From the NCBI RefSeq assembly GCF_041146345.1, contig NW_027191405.1:1860001-1924000 (forward strand): a stretch of 64,000 bases of DNA. Reading direction: 5' to 3'. The notes under the pieces are model-generated. The model ran no database searches. It was not told the origin of the DNA and saw nothing but the letters and a program-made list of their open reading frames with translations. The DNA comes from Neodothiora populina (taxonomy: Eukaryota). Below are positions 34,343 to 43,776 of this stretch, piece after piece. The position numbers and the translations under genes are program-made. Each line of letters starts with the position of its first letter. Positions within the stretch are counted from its first letter, which is position 1.

Positions 34343-36053
34343 ATGGCATACTTTGCGAGAGCCAGAATGATAACGGCATCTTCTTTTCTTTTCCTGACCT
34401 GTGCGAGCTTACTGGCGACGGCTGCTGGATCCCACACTAATTGCGAAGCAATCACGTCCAGCGGAGTTGTTGCTGTATCTGAGTATGTCTCTTGGTCTCT
34501 TGATCACATCCATACGTGGTGTAAAGATCACGATCCCTCCGCAAAGAATCAGTGTGCTTGTAAGTCTTGCAGTGCGATGCGAAGACCACCTGCTGACCTT
34601 GGAGAAAGCATTCGCATGGCCGTCCGATGTTGCTATGCCAAAGTACAAGAAGTTTCGCCGGAACATCATCGAATGGTTATTGACAGTACGCCCCAATATC
34701 GGTACGCGGCCGGACTGCATAACAAGATCTGCGGCATTGGGTATAAACACGACGTCGAACGGGGCTGGTCTGGTCGAAGCGGTGACATGCGACCTGTATG
34801 ACTTCGGCAAGCATCGCCATGAAGAATGTGTATGTTTTCCAGTCTACGCCGATCATATCGTGACTGAATATGTCATTCACAACGACGTACGAACGCTACA
34901 CACGACGACGTCAGTGTTCTACCCTCCTGAGCAAGTGATGCAGAGTGTACTGCTTGCGGCAGCAGAGGAAGGACCCCCATTCGGCAAAGCAGCGAAGGTC
35001 ATGCAGCGTGAGCCTCGACAAAATGGCTGTTTCCCATACTGCCCACTGCCAGGCTCTGTACCGAAGGCTGATGTCGTACGCCGTACTGCCGTCGAAACAA
35101 TCACTAAAACAGCAAAACACGGGAGTAAAACAACTATGACAACAACATATCCTCCTGTTCCGACGACAACGCCAGATTGCAACGATGTGACTTTCTATGC
35201 CAAACGCAAAGCTTCGGCCTGCGGAATCGATATCTGCATGTGGGATTTCATCAAAAACTACACGTCCACAGTCAGCGATTGGGTGACGTTCTCGGATGCC
35301 AGGGGTAATGCACTACGCGCAGACTGGAACACGACATTTTTCCTGGTGACGACGACACATTGGGGCACCTTCCCACCGTTTTCTGATCCTTCCGAAATGA
35401 GTAGCGCGAAGAGGACAGATCCTTGGAGCCATGGCATGGTAGGTTCGTATTCACGCTATCTCACATCTATCGGACTGCCTCCACCCAAAGACGAGGGGCA
35501 GAAAGTGTTGGGGATGAAAGTGAAGGAAGTCAAGGCAGCCTGCCACAACGAGACGGATTGCTGGCGTTACTGCGAGAAGCGACAAAAGAAGGCCAAGACT
35601 CAGCTGCTCCAACTGATGGGTTTTGCAACAGTGATTACAACCATTGCACTTCTGGGTATGGCATGGACACTGTCGGCTAAATGGAGGAAGGAGACTTGGG
35701 ATGGGCAGTCTCCAAAGTGGATGAAGAAAGGAGGAGGCGGGCCGCAGGACCCGGCACCGGCAGAAGCAGTAGAGACCGAGGCAGGAAATGGACATGAGAG
35801 GGGAGCAACGCAGGTACAGGCGCAAGACGGAAATGCTGGTGCAGTGGGGACGATGGGCAAAGCCGCCGAAGAAGGCAGGGGCAGACCTCGAGTGCGCTTC
35901 TTTCCAGACGATCAGATTGCTAGCGCGCATGGAGAGAATGGGGCAGGCAACGGAGTTCGGCGAGTCAGCGGAAGGAATGCCTTGTTCGAGGTGAGCGAGA
36001 GGGGCAGTATCAGAAGCCGAGTACCTTCTCTGGCGGATCAAGCAGGGCAGTGA
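34343..36053 (+). CDS. Orphan type I membrane protein with Cys-rich ectodomain
   Basis: The signal peptide in ORF 34310-34801 (ATG 34343 or 34367) joins ORF 34401-36053 through intron 34560-34608 (GTAAGT..GCTGAC..AAG). Single TM LLQLMGFATVITTIALLGMAWTLSA followed by a basic stop-transfer segment. Confidence 0.7.
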
Positions 36054-36618
36054 CTCTGTCTGCAGTAGAAGAGGATGGCAGATGGCTTCCAGTGAGACGA
36101 GTGGAAGCACAGGTTTGCGGGTCTCGCGATGAGCAGAGGAGGTCACAGGAAGGTAGGTATTTCTACAAGAGCATGTATTTATCGAAGCATGTCATAAATT
36201 TGCAGAGCTGTGTCCTGTGAAGATTGTACCAGTGACACAATACAGCACGACAAGGGCAGTAGTCATTCATATTCTTCATCGATCTACCAGGTATAATTCC
36301 ATTCTCTCGAGGAGTAGAAATGCGAGGTTCGGTGGATGAAAATAGAGTAGAGGTGTTGTGTTCAGTATTACAGTAAAGTGGAGTGCGGAGTGGGTCCGAG
36401 CGTTGCGGTATACAGTGCAAAGTGGAAGGTACAGTCTCAAAACAGCAAGAGCAGTTACTCCGACTTGACCATCTTTATTGCTGCAGCTGTAAATCATCCT
36501 CTCCCTCATCTCCATTTCCCCTCACTAAACCATCCCCATCCCCACCTCCATCGCCATCGCCATCGCCATCAGAATAATTCGACGACTTCTTCATCGCATC
36601 TTCACACCACCAGCAAGA

Positions 36619-38511
36619 ATGGCTGGATCCGAGCCAGACTCCCCATTGTCGTCCCTGGCCTCAGACGACGACATGGCCGACGAGTTGACGACACCAAACC
36701 GCTCCTCGCGACCAAGCGTCGAGACACGCGTCTCCCACGAACCCGACTCACACCCGCGACCACCAAAGAGACGACGAACAGGAGGCGCAGCGGCAGCAGC
36801 GCGCGAGAGCACAGCAGGAGGTGGTGCCGGCGGCAGCAACAACAGCAACAACAATAACGGCGGGGCCTTTACGACGTTCAGCGCCAACGAGCGGGCGCCT
36901 TCTTCTGCAGTGGAGCACGACTCGGACATTGAATTGTCAGAAGACACCGAGGGCAGCGCTCCGGGATCACCTTCGCATGGGGAATACGCGCTGCGAGCGG
37001 ACCAGATCACGGCGTGCCAGTGGGACAGCTGTCCCGTGGGCGACCTGGGCAACAGCGACGACCTGATCAAGCACGTCCAGGACGAGCACATCAGCCCAAA
37101 GAGAGCCAAATACACGTGTGAATGGGGAGACTGTGCGCGCAAGGGCACGGTGCATCCAAGCGGCTACGCTCTCAAGGCCCACATGCGCAGTCACACCAAG
37201 GAGAAGCCCTTCTTCTGCAGTCTGCCAGAGTGCGATCGCTCCTTCACGAGATCAGACGCCCTCGCCAAACACATGCGCACCGTCCACGAACCCGAGCCCG
37301 CGAAGCATCCTGCCACCAATCCCGAAGCCACACCCACCTCTACCAAAAAGACCCAGGGTCCCAAGATTCGTCTCGTCAACGGCAAGTCTGCTGCAGCGGC
37401 GGCGGCGGCAGCGGCAGCGGCAGCAGCATCTGCGACAGCCGCCGCATCGACGAGAGCAGCTCCCGCAATCCCAGCAGATTCTCCACACCTTCTCGATCCC
37501 TCGCATCCGAACCACGACCCCAGCCCGCCAAACGACAACATCCAGTACATACCCGCCAAGCACCCCATAACCGGCCAGCCAGGCTTCATGATCACCTATC
37601 CACCAGACATTCACTTCACCCAGTTCGAGTCGGAGATCCCCGCGAACCAGCTCATGCGCCTGCTGCGCCGACAGCTGCACTGGGCACAGAGCGAGAGCGA
37701 CCAGCTCAAGCTCGAACTCGAGACACTGGAGAAGCTGAAAAAGGAGGAGTGGAAGAAGAAAGAGGCGCTTCTGCAGGGCGTCATGCACACCGAACTCGAC
37801 TTTGCCATCGAGAACCACTTTCATGCGTCCGATCGCGTGCTGGCGGGTATGAAGGACGACGTCGCCGCTCTGACGGCGTCAACGACCGCCACGATAACGA
37901 CAGCGCCGCCGCTGCAGTGGACCAAGCCGCCAAAGTGGAAGAAAGTTGTCGAGAAGAAGAAAGAAATCCAGCCCCCTGCAGCGAGTGCAGCCGATGCGGC
38001 GCGGAGCGGTCGAGATGAAGCCGGCGACGAGGAAGACGTCGACGACGAAGACGAAGAAGAGCCCGAAGAAAAGAAAAAGGCAAAACCCAAGGCCAAAAAG
38101 GCCGCCGCTGCTGCTGCTGCCGCTGAAGATGCATCCGAAGAAGATGAAGACATTGAATTAAACGACGCTCCTCCCCTGCCAGCTCCTTCTGCCGCCGCCG
38201 CCGACGACGACGACGAAGACGACGACAACGCAAGCGAAGTCATCCCCATCGCAGCCATCCCCATCGCAGCCATGCCGAGCAGTAAATCCAAAAGCAAAAG
38301 CAGGAAAAGCAACGGCGGCAAAAGTAGCAAAAGAGCCGATGCCGGCGGCGCTGCTAATGCTGCTAATGCTAATGCTAATGCTAATGCTAATGCTAATGCT
38401 AATGCTAATGCTGCCAAAGATGGTTCGACAACAGCTGCGACAACGGCGGGTCAAGTGGCCTCGCAGGAGAGAGACGCCATTTCTGCGCTGTTGGGCATGT
38501 CTGCCACTTGA
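36619..38511 (+). CDS. C2H2 zinc-finger protein, Iec1-like (GLI/Zic-type fingers; putative INO80 subunit)
   Basis: Three fingers: CQWDSC..HVQDEH, CEWGDC..HMRSH, then linker TKEKPF and CSLPECDRSFTRSDALAKHMRTVH. Downstream coiled coil LMRLLRRQLHWA and an acidic low-complexity tail. Confidence 0.8.
   Translation: MAGSEPDSPLSSLASDDDMADELTTPNRSSRPSVETRVSHEPDSHPRPPKRRRTGGAAAAARESTAGGGAGGSNNSNNNNGGAFTTFSANERAPSSAVEHDSDIELSEDTEGSAPGSPSHGEYALRADQITACQWDSCPVGDLGNSDDLIKHVQDEHISPKRAKYTCEWGDCARKGTVHPSGYALKAHMRSHTKEKPFFCSLPECDRSFTRSDALAKHMRTVHEPEPAKHPATNPEATPTSTKKTQGPKIRLVNGKSAAAAAAAAAAAAASATAAASTRAAPAIPADSPHLLDPSHPNHDPSPPNDNIQYIPAKHPITGQPGFMITYPPDIHFTQFESEIPANQLMRLLRRQLHWAQSESDQLKLELETLEKLKKEEWKKKEALLQGVMHTELDFAIENHFHASDRVLAGMKDDVAALTASTTATITTAPPLQWTKPPKWKKVVEKKKEIQPPAASAADAARSGRDEAGDEEDVDDEDEEEPEEKKKAKPKAKKAAAAAAAAEDASEEDEDIELNDAPPLPAPSAAAADDDDEDDDNASEVIPIAAIPIAAMPSSKSKSKSRKSNGGKSSKRADAGGAANAANANANANANANANANAAKDGSTTAATTAGQVASQERDAISALLGMSAT
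38353..38412 (+). repeat. (GCTAAT)n coding minisatellite encoding an (Ala-Asn)n tract
   Basis: About 9 hexamer units, read directly. Confidence 0.95.
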
Positions 38512-38929
38512 TCCCTCTTTCTTTTTATTTTCTCTCACTGTTTCTTCTTCTTCTGCATTGCATGTGCTCCTGCAATCATCTTGTTCTTACTCTCTTCATC
38601 CGATGAGACTCCATTCCAGGCCTTGTTTCATGCACATGGCAGCTAGCTCAGTGGTTTTGTTTTATTTCTGTGTTTTCTCCAAAGAGAGAAAAAGGGAGCA
38701 GCTTCGGGCAATGACAGAATTATATGATGATCCATCAATGCCAATGCCAATGTCACATCGAGTCCATACACACAACCCACTTTTGACCACTTGGTTGAAT
38801 ATTGCGTATTTGTTGCCTTTCCTTGATCCTCAGCCACCGATAGAATCGCTTGGGTCACCCGTGTACCACTCCTCCCTTTTGGGATTCATTTTCACTACTT
38901 TTGTAAACAAAGCCAAATAAGCAAATCAC

Positions 38930-39850
38930 TCATCGTCCCTCCTGCTCACGAAGTTTACTCCTGCCCCCACCACCACCACCACCAAACCAAGACAACGACG
39001 ACGAAGAAGGAGGCGAAGAAGCCGACACGACAGGGCGACCGGATATCGACGACGGCCGATGATGATCATGTCGCTGTCTGGCCTTTTCCTTTTCTTTTGT
39101 CTTTTCCTTTGCTATCATCGTGCTTTTCGATGTACTGTGAGGAATCACCGACGCAGAAGAAGAAGAAGAAGAAGAAGAAGAAGAAGAAGAAGAAGAAGAA
39201 GCCGGGACTCGTTCTCGCGCCGATGCTTTTCTTCTCGACGAGGATGACTCTAGTGATGATCCCGTTGCTGCTGTGGAATCTTCGTGTGATGATGTACCCT
39301 GTCGTTGTCGTCGCAGCGGTGGAGCAGAAGACGGAAGAGAAGACGGCAGCAGCAGGAGCTGGTCTTTCTGATAGTAGTGATTTCGATGTAGATGCCGATG
39401 ACGACCGCCGCTGCTGCGCAGACTGGTCAGGGATGGTTTGGAGCCGAGGGTTCGTCTGCTTCTGTTTGTGCTTGATGGGGCGGTGCTGGTGCTGCTGTTG
39501 CTTTTTGCGCTTCGTCTGAGGGCGGGTCTGCTTGTTGCTGAGGAAGATGGTGGTGTCGCTGCTTCGCGGACGAGTTTGCTAGTTGTTTTCGGGGGTTGGT
39601 CAGGCAATGATGCTCTGGATCGGTTGCTCTTTCTGTACGCGTCCTTTTCCACAGCGGAATCCTGGCTTGTTTTGTTTTTGCTCGCACTCGGCTTTCTTTC
39701 TGTGCTTTTCGTTTTCGTCTTTTCGTTTCTTGATTTATCGTCGATGGCTAGTAGCCTGCTCTTCGAGCTGTCCATGCTCTTTGGTTTCCCCTTCACATCC
39801 TCCGCCACCGCCTCATCGTCCTCCGAACCCCTTCTCCCCTCCCTGCGCAG
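38930..39850 (-). CDS. 306-codon open frame directly continuing the membrane-protein gene past its TGA (putative readthrough extension; Ser/Arg/Lys-rich, disordered)
   Basis: ...AAA CAC AAG TGA CTG CGC AGG GAG... stays open to TGA 38932-38930. ORF 38930-39808 of the track is in the same frame (42-nt offset). Confidence 0.45.
   Translation of the reverse strand: MRREGRRGSEDDEAVAEDVKGKPKSMDSSKSRLLAIDDKSRNEKTKTKSTERKPSASKNKTSQDSAVEKDAYRKSNRSRASLPDQPPKTTSKLVREAATPPSSSATSRPALRRSAKSNSSTSTAPSSTNRSRRTLGSKPSLTSLRSSGGRHRHLHRNHYYQKDQLLLLPSSLPSSAPPLRRQRQGTSSHEDSTAATGSSLESSSSRRKASARERVPASSSSSSSSSSSSSSSASVIPHSTSKSTMIAKEKTKEKEKARQRHDHHRPSSISGRPVVSASSPPSSSSLSWFGGGGGGGRSKLREQEGR
39156..39200 (+). repeat. (GAA)15 microsatellite; poly-Ser in the minus-strand extension frame
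   Basis: Perfect trinucleotide run. Confidence 0.95.
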
Positions 39851-40463
39851 TCACTTGTGTTTCCTCGCCGCCTCGGCATTCTTAAAGGGAAACCCCGAAG
39901 TCCTCTTGTCTGCTCCCGTGCGCTTACTGATCTTTCCCTCGCCTCTAAAGACCAAAAGCAGCAAGCCCGCAATGCCCAGCAACAACTCGAGCGCACCGCC
40001 CAGCGTCATGAGAGAAGACGACAGACCGGGGTCCAAGCCATGCACGTACAGCACAATGGCAAAGACAAGATGATAGACCAGCGTCGAGACGGCGGTGATG
40101 GTCGCCGAAACAGACTTGTCGTCGGGCAGCGAGACGGCCTGCGAGTCGTCGCCGTAGAGCCGCTTGAGTTCGCCAGAGCATACGAGCACCAAGAAGGAAG
40201 CGAGGATCAGAGAGCAGGCGAATCCGCGCGAGAGGTACGACTCGAGAGAGGTCAGGGCGTGAGGCTCGGGGGATACCATCCAGGCGACCAGACTCGGTGA
40301 GACGAGCAGGGGAGCGGCGAGCCCGGCTAGCGAGGCCGCCGATGCTTGCGTGTAGAGTCTGAAGTTCTGTGTCTGTCAGTCTCTGTTCTTTCTGCATTCC
40401 TCGATCCTCACTCGAGCCTCAAGAGGGATAAGAAGGTATGCTGCGGCAGGAACTTACATCCAT
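39851..40463 (-). CDS. Small multi-pass fungal membrane protein ending ISKRTGADKRTSGFPFKN...
   Basis: Micro-exon ATGGAT (40463-40458), intron 40367-40457 (GTAAGT..CTGAC..CAG), then NFRLYTQASAASLAGLAAPLLVSP... with about 4 hydrophobic segments. I recall the C-terminal motif as conserved in uncharacterised fungal proteins. Stop TGA 39853-39851. Confidence 0.8.
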
Positions 40464-41497: not shown

Positions 41498-43346
41498 TCA
41501 GCTTCCTCTGAAAGCATCGAAGCGCTTGTAGGTGTATCCGATAAAGGGAAGACTCATGCTCGCTTCTTCCGGTCCGCCAGCCTCCGTCTGTGCGCGCAGC
41601 TGGGCCGAGTTGTCCGTCTGCGGGATCTCGTCGATGGGGAAATACTGCGTGTCGACGGCGGATTGCAGCTTGGGTTCGAAGGGCGCGCGGATACGGCGCA
41701 GCTGGTCCCACTGCACACCACGGAAGAAGGGGTGGTCTTTGAGCTCGCTGGCTCCGTAAGAGCGACCCAGGCGGTGATCGGCATCGCAGATGAGACTTCG
41801 GATGAAATGCTCGGCTTCGTTGCCAATCTGCTGGTCAGGAGGGAAGTGCAGATTACGGGGCCAATCAACAATCTTCCTGTAAGTGTCGTGAGGCTCCTCA
41901 GCGCAGAAGGGCGGCCAACCGATCAAACACTCGAACATGATGGTGCCAACACTCCACCAATCGCAGCCGTAGTCGTAACCCTGACCGGTAAAGATCTCGG
42001 GGGCGATGTAATCGGGAGTTCCGACGGTGGAATAGGCGAGTTGGCGACGGGACTTGCGCCAGGTGTTGATCTGGTTGCGGTTGCTGACCGTGAGCTGGAT
42101 CTGGTCGATGCTGACCGACTGGCGGTTGGCGGCATTGGAGCGTGTGCGGACGTTGGACATGAGCTGTTGGTAGTACGAAGCATTGTGCTCCTTGTAGAAG
42201 CCAGTCGACAGACCGAAGTCGGTCAGCTTGATGTGTCCGCCGCGGTCGAGAAGGATGTTGTCGGGCTTGATGTCACTGCAGCAAGGTCAGTGGTGGCAAA
42301 GAAAACAAAAAAGGCAAGGACCAAACACGCACCGATGGATGAAGCCTAACTTGTGCACAGCCTCTAGAGCAAGAGTGATCTCGGCCATGTAGAAACGCGT
42401 AATGTCCTCGGAGAAGATTTCGTATTTGATCAGCATGGTCATCAGATCACCACCGGGCAAGAACTCCATCAGCATGTAGAGGAAAGTAGAGTCCTGGAAG
42501 GAGGTGTGCAGCTTGACGAGCCAGGGACTGTCGGCATTGGCGAGGATGTCACGCTCGGCGCGGACGTGGGCGAGTTGATCCTTCTTGAACTAGATGAAGA
42601 AGTCAGTATGGTTGATAATCCAAGAAGAAGAAAAGACTCACCATCTCGGCCTTGATCAGTGACTTGAGAGCATAGATCTTGCCGTCGTGTCTCCGCTGCA
42701 CCAGCTTGACTTCTCCAAAGGCACCCTTGCCGATGATCTTGAGTGTCTGGTAGTTCTGCGGTCTCTCGCTGGTCCTCAGGAAACGCAGAAAGTTGACCTC
42801 GGACTTGCGCAGACTCTCTTGCTTGCTCTTCTTGCGGTTGTCCGACAGCGTGGCGTCTTTCATGATCTGATCCAACTCTTGTGCACGTCCGTTTCTGTCA
42901 CGCGCTCTCTCGACGCTGTCCTTGAAGAAGCTGCCCACGAGCTCCGTCTGCAGCTTGGCTCTGTTGGTGATGCTGGTGGAGAAGCGTTCGGGGTTTTTGA
43001 GAGGAGCCTCGTCGTCGTAGACCGAAGGGGAGCCGTTGTGTTGAGGAGCACCCAGATAGCTTTGTTGCTGCTGCTGTTGTTGTTGTTGTTGTTGTTGTTG
43101 TTGCTGACCTTGTCCATGGCTTGAGCCTCCCGTCCGCGGTCGTTGGCTGCCGTTGGCGTTGGCGTTGGCGTTGGCGGGCGAGGGACCCCGGCCGTAAGGA
43201 CTCTGTACTCTGCCCTGGTTGTTGTTGTTGCCGCCGAGGTTCTGGTGGGCGAATTGGTGAACCATGCCAGTCGTAGCGTCATTGTATCCTTGAAGGGCAC
43301 GGTAGGCAGCAGAGGGTGGTTGCAGTGCTCCCTGCTGCTGCTGTTG

Positions 43347-43388
<42 letters not shown>

Positions 43389-43646
43389 TTGTTGCATCGC
43401 AGGTGTATAGGGGCCGTTGGCAAAGTAGCCCTGTTGATTGAAGCCACTCTGTGGTTGGGCTCCCGGTGTGCCTGCTCCCCATACCTCTTGCTGTCCTTGT
43501 GAATTGGGAAAGGGCTGTGGGAAAGTCGAGGGTGTGGTGGGATAGGCCCGTCCGGTCTCTGCACCGCCGAAGACGGGGTTGTTCTGGAAGCCAAAGTTGA
43601 GGTGCAGTCGATTGGACTGTTGCTGCTGCTGCTGTTGGGGATTCAT
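41498..43646 (-). CDS. CBK1: NDR-family Ser/Thr kinase Cbk1/COT-1 (RAM/MOR network)
   Basis: Q-rich N-terminus, [40 protein letters not shown] and hydrophobic motif [10 protein letters not shown]. Introns 42590-42641 and 42276-42332. Confidence 0.96.
43063..43394 (-). repeat. CAG/CAA polyglutamine tracts (and an Asn-Ala repeat) in the Cbk1 N-terminus
   Basis: (TGC)/(TGT) runs at about 43063-43105 and 43332-43394; (GGCGTT)n near 43150-43175. Confidence 0.95.
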
Positions 43647-43776
43647 CTTGGCAGAGTGTCGATGGATCTAGGGAGCAGAGATGCAAGGAGGTGAAGTCGG
43701 ACTTTCTAAAACAAGACACTTTGTTACAATGAAGGAAGGGAGGTGGGAGGTGTTGTAGCTCTTGGCACGTGATGGG

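Follow-up and report, generated by a model that had tools for sequence, protein, structure and literature searches.

An in-frame open stretch of 306 codons behind the UGA-CU stop of a conserved membrane-protein gene in Neodothiora populina, a candidate lineage-specific readthrough tail

A stretch of 64 kb of Neodothiora populina DNA (hereafter the window, a small sample from which all tail statistics and their controls were drawn) carries on its minus strand a gene for a small membrane protein whose reading frame continues well beyond the stop codon. The spliced product (40463-40458 joined to 40366-39854) matches the annotated 173-aa hypothetical protein AAFC00_005634 with 100% identity, and its coding sequence (CDS) ends with AAA CAC AAG TGA (39853-39851), followed by CTG CGC AGG. 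As stated in the original prediction and confirmed here in the sequence, no further stop interrupts this frame for 306 codons, or 918 nt (39850-38933), up to a second TGA at 38932-38930, and translation of 40375-38930 meets one internal stop only. The question raised by this locus is whether the open stretch, called the tail below, is translated as an extension of the membrane protein. Its anatomy, the match of the stop to a known readthrough context, the coding-like phase of the tail, its 75 nt before the first ATG included, and its restriction to one lineage are all observed. Together they suggest a coding-like tail of this lineage that may be reached via readthrough of a weak UGA-CU stop, a candidate reading which is favoured here tentatively and at somewhat less than an even chance.

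The TGA at 39853-39851 is a genuine stop, as the family ends at the same place in every relative seen. The 158 homologues detected at E <= 0.001 belong to a Pezizomycotina family of ca. 170-180 residues, in which the C-terminal motif SKRTGADKRTSGFPFKN is nearly invariant. An alignment of 26 sequences contains 15 invariant columns, and all 26 members terminate 5-14 residues past an invariant Asn (N165). The seven closest proteins (62-79% identity), which come from assembled public reads and were compared as proteins only, terminate at the same residue as that of N. populina, with KKHK, KKHS or RKHR. The N. populina protein itself has the length, the hydrophobic stretches and the invariant C-terminal motif of the family. 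No Pfam family was found for the membrane protein and sources disagree on a name for it (MARVEL, DUF4149, even "glutathione transferase"), while a protein atlas places it in an unnamed ascomycete cluster with an Ilm1 look-alike at 0.82 that is a lead only.

A further lead concerns the C-terminus of the family. A di-lysine-like ending (K at -3, K at -4 or -5) occurs in 19 of the 26 aligned proteins and in 27 of 52 distinct metagenome tails, and recalls the KKXX signals for retrieval to the endoplasmic reticulum, which need a free C-terminus. The RKHK terminus of N. populina does not fit this pattern, which may be due to chance in Lys-rich tails.

UGA CU is described as the core motif sufficient for readthrough in Ustilago maydis and in HeLa cells, an A as the third base after UGA boosting it further (PMC4207609). 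The N. populina stop, UGA CUG, matches this core and has a G in place of the stimulatory A. It had been predicted as a leaky UGA-C context close to UGA-CUA; this holds for the UGA CU core and not for its conservation in the family (see below). No readthrough measurement for UGA CUG was found, and PMC12233894 contains no data on it.

The tail is composed of 25% Ser, 20% Arg+Lys and 11% VILMFWC, in line with the basic and Ser-rich character first attributed to it, and its four tandem arrays have periods of 3, 6, 3 and 9, all multiples of three, so that the repeats indeed keep the frame. Seven stops occur in each of the remaining two frames. Among 20000 dinucleotide shuffles, 13 leave frame 0 without a stop, and among 20000 block-wise shuffles 26 do. 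Past the stops of the other 17 long open reading frames (ORFs) of the window, the frame stays open for 1-65 codons only. The open frame at this locus is therefore about a 1 in 1000 event, which is expected occasionally when many genomes are scanned and is not compelling alone. The sense strand of the tail is T-poor (0.18), a composition that in the rest of the window is confined to long ORFs, the majority with Pfam support.

The tail is not ordinary non-coding DNA, as it displays a pervasive, phase-coherent triplet structure like that of the disordered coding regions of neighbouring genes. Its phase-by-dinucleotide chi-square is 93.7 when the two perfect microsatellites are removed and 90.0 when the four tandem repeats are masked, against a median of 95-103 and a minimum of 53-55 for coding windows and a maximum of 47-49 for non-coding ones. 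All five 100-codon pieces of the tail score 57.5-67.7, compared with a maximum of 54.3 in 174 non-coding pieces and a coding median of 59.1. Comparable triplet phase was found in 0 of 64, 74 and 174 non-coding windows or pieces, these controls being regions of the window without any ORF of at least 120 codons, which excludes look-alikes by construction. A scan of the whole stretch in 632 windows, which repairs this bias only in part, detected the triplet signal over known CDSs and the open stretch only. Phase coherence, for which a piece was counted when a model built from the remaining pieces predicted it best in shift 0, was found in 4 of 5 tail pieces with the microsatellites removed and in 5 of 6 pieces of the full tail; 51 of 51 coding windows reached 4-6 of 6, and 5 of 60 non-coding windows reached at least 4.

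Excess identity in the tail occurs only at lags 3, 6, 9 and 12 (0.146, 0.130, 0.071 and 0.073, respectively). The lag-3 maximum in non-coding sequence is 0.042, and the low-complexity coding parts of the neighbouring zinc-finger and kinase genes resemble the tail. Serine codons of both families are concentrated in the open phase, with counts by phase of 23/5/10 for AGY and 39/8/19 for TCN (TCT run excluded), and this bias is present in every third of the tail. Once the TCT and GGT runs are removed, 39 of the 46 T-first codons in frame 0 are TCN; T is followed by C in 24-41% of cases in the other two phases, and ca. 42% is estimated for an unconstrained open frame. The phase pattern of the tail correlates with that of disordered, Ser-rich pieces taken from genuine genes in the window (r = 0.70).

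The same coding-like phase starts directly past the stop, before the first ATG. The first in-frame ATG (39775-39773) lies 75 nt past the stop, and in this linker the phase margin for shift 0 is 0.186 bits/nt; 0.9% of 436 non-coding pieces do as well, and so do 21 of 5000 shuffled versions of the linker. Read on from the upstream CDS, these 75 nt contain no stop, whereas a stop is present in each of the other two frames. None of seven poly(A)-like hexamer types was found inside the 918-nt tail. The first poly(A)-signal-like words past the stop of the membrane gene, TAGT and AATGAA, are found 35-40 nt past the stop of the tail, where the GC content drops to 0.37. The absence of hexamers is weak evidence because fungal poly(A) signals are degenerate.

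Under the readthrough reading, most ribosomes would stop at the ancestral TGA and release the conserved 173-aa protein. In this lineage, ca. 900 nt of triplet-phased, serine-rich sequence would have grown directly behind the stop and in the same frame, so that a minority of ribosomes, inserting an amino acid at the UGA, would go on for 306 codons and produce an isoform of ca. 480 aa. In this long isoform the conserved basic C-terminus of the family would be buried by a cytosolic tail that is basic, Ser-rich and disordered. We infer that one mRNA covers the tail, that ribosomes do read through the stop and that selection favours the long isoform. The original prediction of a short and a long isoform is in part supported, by the UGA CU context, the frame-keeping repeats and the coding-like phase, and gains nothing from conservation, homologues, RNA structure or codon usage. 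A broader version is rather doubtful, namely that in one lineage a 306-residue disordered domain has grown from nothing by triplet-repeat expansion behind the leaky UGA-CU stop of a conserved four-helix membrane protein, with readthrough as the cradle where selection would first meet the new coding sequence, the ancestral short protein remaining the main product.

A number of observations weigh against readthrough, beginning with the comparison with relatives. When the read-through product was searched with phmmer against 1.84 billion representatives, the 97 matches were all on the membrane part and none extended past query residue 213, and a word-index search with the tail alone (8000 candidates scored) found no homologue. 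JGI metagenome contigs provided 80 loci from relatives at 28-54% identity, 76 of which have the motif, and no similarity to the tail was detected in these 80 loci at the protein or DNA level. Their 62 distinct stop contexts comprise 25 TAA, 23 TAG and 14 TGA, with TGA-C in none of the 62, and the frames past these stops close after 0-82 codons, with a median of 13 (59 closed; 3 leave the contig at 15-35 codons). The conserved TGA-C stop and extension that had been proposed as a check in orthologues are thus not found in these loci. The C2H2 zinc-finger gene forms a conserved convergent pair with the membrane gene, lying downstream as it does here in 24 of the 27 loci with a zinc-finger match, and the stop-to-stop spacer of these 24 syntenic loci is 74-756 nt, compared with 1339 nt here, which is too short for 918 nt; these spacers are approximate as each zinc-finger stop was estimated by following the frame on from the last alignment. 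In favour of the tail, treating it as coding brings the N. populina spacer to 418 nt, inside the range of the relatives. In Aureobasidium-like loci, a casein-kinase-II-beta-like gene (named by eye) is found downstream instead. Because no homologue was found and the syntenic spacers are too short, the ca. 900 nt of the tail appear to be extra DNA of this lineage and a recent, narrow novelty.

The stop and the tail themselves provide other points on the same side. TGA-CT occurs at 2 of the 18 ORF ends of the window and is hence not rare, and no stimulatory RNA structure was found 3' of the stop (z = +0.32). No protein is called on the tail in the genome annotation. Its recognition value in the protein atlas is 862, far short of the 2300 reached by 91 in 100 proteins of known families, and no usable match was returned; a Pfam search found nothing for the tail, nor for ORFs in other frames or on the opposite strand of the region. 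A peroxisomal targeting signal of the PTS1/SKL type acts at the C-terminus, and none was recognised at the end of the tail, which terminates in ...SKLREQEGR with SKL internal. The perfect 47-nt microsatellite suggests recent and unstable growth, and the phase pattern of the tail correlates only weakly with that of all genes (0.13, against at least 0.52 for real genes).

Codon scores also speak against the tail as ordinary coding sequence. Derived from 17 Pfam-backed ORFs of the window, a codon table picks frame 0 in 90 of 90 segments of 306 codons from real genes, and the log-odds of the tail in frame 0 (-0.061) is under those of all 90. A second model, opposing coding to non-coding sense codons, gives -0.024 for frame 0 of the tail, next to a coding minimum of -0.025 and a maximum of -0.057 in 174 non-coding windows. 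It gives +0.138 for frame 2, despite 7 stops and a 15-residue poly-Phe run in that frame (39066-39578, minus strand). Frame 2 scores high because the open frame, rich in Ser, Thr, Pro and Ala, has much C at its second position and this mimics the C-rich third position of the genome, an example of how codon scores trained on genes mislead on low-complexity sequence. When applied to Ser-rich disordered pieces of real genes, the codon model finds frame 0 best in only 21 of 27. Neither GC3 nor synonymous codon usage, which is only weakly biased in this genome, discriminates for the tail, and the whole-tail base-by-position chi-square cancels between the two halves. The extension thus has no standard codon-usage signal favouring frame 0. 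On the strength of the gene-trained codon scores and of the whole-tail chi-square, a 3' untranslated region (UTR) open by chance was first considered the probable explanation. That estimate was later lowered because the model is weak on Ser-rich disordered coding sequence, the halves of the chi-square cancel and the phase tests point the opposite way.

In its present form this explanation holds that the tail is untranslated 3' UTR or intergenic low-complexity DNA grown by triplet and hexamer slippage, whose T-poor, stop-free triplets leave the frame of the upstream gene open by chance, any readthrough product being unselected noise; we consider it unlikely, while giving it real weight. It accounts for DNA that is lineage-specific and unannotated, with no homologue and no room in relatives, for perfect (TCT) and (GGT) arrays of 15.7 and 6 copies that show active slippage, and for the scarcity of stops in all six frames of the region, where ORFs of 100-252 codons overlap on both strands. 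The codon log-odds that do not favour frame 0, the uninformative synonymous usage and the low atlas recognition fit as well, and an event with p of ca. 0.001 is expected somewhere among very many genes. Such DNA would nevertheless have to acquire a triplet phase that no non-coding control of the window shows, within the limit set by excluding ORFs of at least 120 codons from the controls, and that the 632-window scan locates over CDSs and this stretch alone. Slippage has no reason to shun periods of 1, 2, 4 and 5, yet the excess identity is confined to multiples of three. Two serine codon families that are mutationally unconnected share the open phase along the whole length, TCN codons make up more of the T-first codons than is estimated without further constraint, and the block begins no more than a few bases from the stop codon and in its frame.

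The coding-like phase would also suit a separate, unannotated orphan gene of 281 codons starting at ATG 39775, translated either as a second cistron or from a transcript that begins within the membrane gene near its 3' end, the shared frame being a coincidence. This ATG has an A at -3 and a G at +4, and an AT-rich, poly(A)-signal-like region lies past the ORF stop. We nonetheless regard such a gene as improbable. The ATG is 75 nt from the upstream stop, as had been noted, which is judged to leave no intergenic room for a promoter; the linker contains two out-of-frame ATGs (39816 and 39798) and is already in the triplet phase and frame of the tail. Both features of the linker argue against a separate gene started at this ATG, as does its being open in the frame of the upstream CDS alone. 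The ATG-started protein has no exact match in a collection of 15 billion proteins, and the membrane and zinc-finger genes have adjacent locus tags in the 3 species for which both are listed (Sphaceloma murrayae, Pyrenophora teres and Polychaeton citri). The stop could also be bypassed in RNA, by an alternative intron that removes it and joins the CDS to the tail or through A-to-I editing of the UGA to UGG at certain stages, which we think very improbable. A-to-I stop-loss editing has to our knowledge not been reported for Dothideomycetes, a statement for which no search was made. There are seven frame-preserving donor/acceptor pairs whose donor fits at 5 or more of 6 positions, and on inspection a weak donor at the stop itself, GTGACT, could pair with a CAG acceptor at 39768 to give a frame-preserving intron of 87 nt. 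A branch-like CTRAY at usable distance occurs in only one of the seven pairs (intron of 369 nt), and this pair, as well as all those on donors 39927 or 40049, would delete the invariant motif of the family; the 87-nt candidate has a C at donor +5, is purine-rich and lacks a branch site, and the linker has the look of coding sequence, not of an intron. Stop-loss editing is known from Fusarium (PMC4817773, PMC13123824), but as described in PMC11156358 it prefers a U at -1 and hairpin loops (UAG, UAA), whereas here a G is found at -1 and no fold stands out, so that the low rank initially given to editing is upheld.

The coordinates of the features are collected in Table 1.

Table 1. Features of the membrane-protein locus and its open stretch in the N. 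populina window
Feature	Position	Strand	Basis or remark
Exon 1 (ATG GAT) of the membrane-protein gene	40458..40463	-	Sequence; ATG at 40463-40461; annotated product starts MDNFRLY
Intron of 91 nt, GTAAGT donor, ACTGAC branch-like site, CAG acceptor	40367..40457	-	Join gives the annotated protein exactly
Exon 2, 171 codons, four hydrophobic stretches and invariant tail motif SKRTGADKRTSGFPFKN	39854..40366	-	Translation, alignment
Stop TGA and CTG, fitting the UGA CU readthrough core	39848..39853	-	Sequence; PMC4207609
Linker of 75 nt from stop to first in-frame ATG (LRREGRRGSEDDEAVAEDVKGKPKS), triplet phase as in the rest of the tail	39776..39850	-	Phase model
First in-frame ATG of the open stretch, A at -3, G at +4	39773..39775	-	Sequence
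In-frame open stretch of 306 codons, Ser/Arg/Lys-rich low-complexity tail	38933..39850	-	ORF, shuffles, phase tests
Period-9 tandem repeat, 2.1 copies	39484..39502	-	Tandem Repeats Finder
Perfect (TCT) array, 15.7 copies, 100% matches, poly-Ser in the open frame	39155..39201	-	Tandem Repeats Finder
Period-6 purine-rich repeat, KEKTKEKEK	39082..39110	-	Tandem Repeats Finder, translation
(GGT) array, 6.0 copies, poly-Gly in the open frame	38967..38984	-	Tandem Repeats Finder
Stop TGA closing the open stretch	38930..38932	-	Sequence
AT-richer stretch with TAGT (38897) and AATGAA (38890)	38861..38929	-	GC 0.37 in bin 38861-38920
Convergent C2H2 zinc-finger ORF, INO80 subunit 1-like	36619..38511	+	Stop 1339 nt from that of the membrane gene and 418 nt from that of the tail

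The locus seems to be generally prone to triplet-repeat growth. The convergent zinc-finger ORF has 630 aa from its first ATG, as compared to 434-455 aa in Aureobasidium, and its extra C-terminal part (37650-38511, plus strand) is of low complexity, with poly-Ala, acidic runs and (Asn-Ala)n. The search with this protein returned no self-match of N. populina, suggesting that the annotated model may differ, and the ORF model has no exact match in the 15-billion-protein collection. The upstream neighbour (41498-43667, minus strand) is a protein kinase of at least 2 exons that by eye we take to resemble the NDR kinase Cot1/Cbk1, and has a low-complexity N-terminal part with a strong triplet lag signal. 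In the leader upstream of the zinc-finger ATG (36001-36620, plus strand), lags 3, 6 and 9 are raised (ca. 0.075) with a low phase chi-square (48-56); the lag signal comes, by eye, from a short hexamer repeat read as IAIAIAI, and this leader is probably an example of a non-coding hexamer repeat. No copy of the open stretch was found elsewhere in the 64-kb window.

If the readthrough reading holds, a 306-residue readthrough tail on a membrane protein, absent from the relatives with readable DNA, would be by far the longest fungal example known to us and would offer a datable birth of a large disordered segment behind a kept stop codon, with a bearing on the de novo origin of coding sequence. If the tail is untranslated, the locus would be a warning that triplet-phased low-complexity DNA mimics the hallmarks of coding sequence and that such statistics alone are insufficient to call readthrough. 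We know of no long readthrough example in filamentous ascomycetes; in Drosophila, kelch and headcase reportedly carry long readthrough extensions, and the peroxisomal extensions reached past UGA CU(A) are only about a dozen residues long.

The closest known systems are the metabolic enzymes that are extended by UGA CU(A) readthrough in Ustilago maydis, other fungi and animals (Stiebler et al. 2014, PMC4207609). They share with the N. populina locus a UGA followed by CU and an in-frame extension, and are described as minority isoforms produced by near-cognate decoding with no RNA structure needed; unlike the N. populina tail, which has 306 low-complexity residues, is confined to one lineage and is known from its sequence alone, their extensions carry a PTS1 and recur in orthologues (PMC4207609). 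The N. populina case, having the context and neither the conservation in orthologues nor a targeting signal, would thus be a candidate member of this group only. Stop recoding that yields a long isoform is also described for A-to-I editing in Fusarium graminearum and Neurospora, where it is stage-specific and needs a U at -1 (UAG, UAA), whereas the N. populina UGA has a G at -1 and the fungus itself belongs to another class (PMC4817773, PMC11156358, PMC13123824). In Drosophila, about 1,400 readthrough cases (PMC13278127) and lineage-restricted extensions (bioRxiv 10.64898/2026.07.13.738141) have been reported. As proposed for N. populina, these extensions reach up to hundreds of residues, are often disordered and young, and leave the stop codon in place; they were recognised from coding signatures across species and from ribosome profiling, whereas the present case, in a filamentous ascomycete, comes from statistics within one sequence. 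Finally, protein C-termini have been described that arose de novo from 3' UTR sequence (PMC4494051) and, as proposed here, drew new C-terminal coding sequence from the DNA past an old stop. In those cases, as far as PMC4494051 describes them, the stop was lost or shifted and the additions are short, whereas in N. populina the ancestral stop is kept and the stretch behind it is very long.

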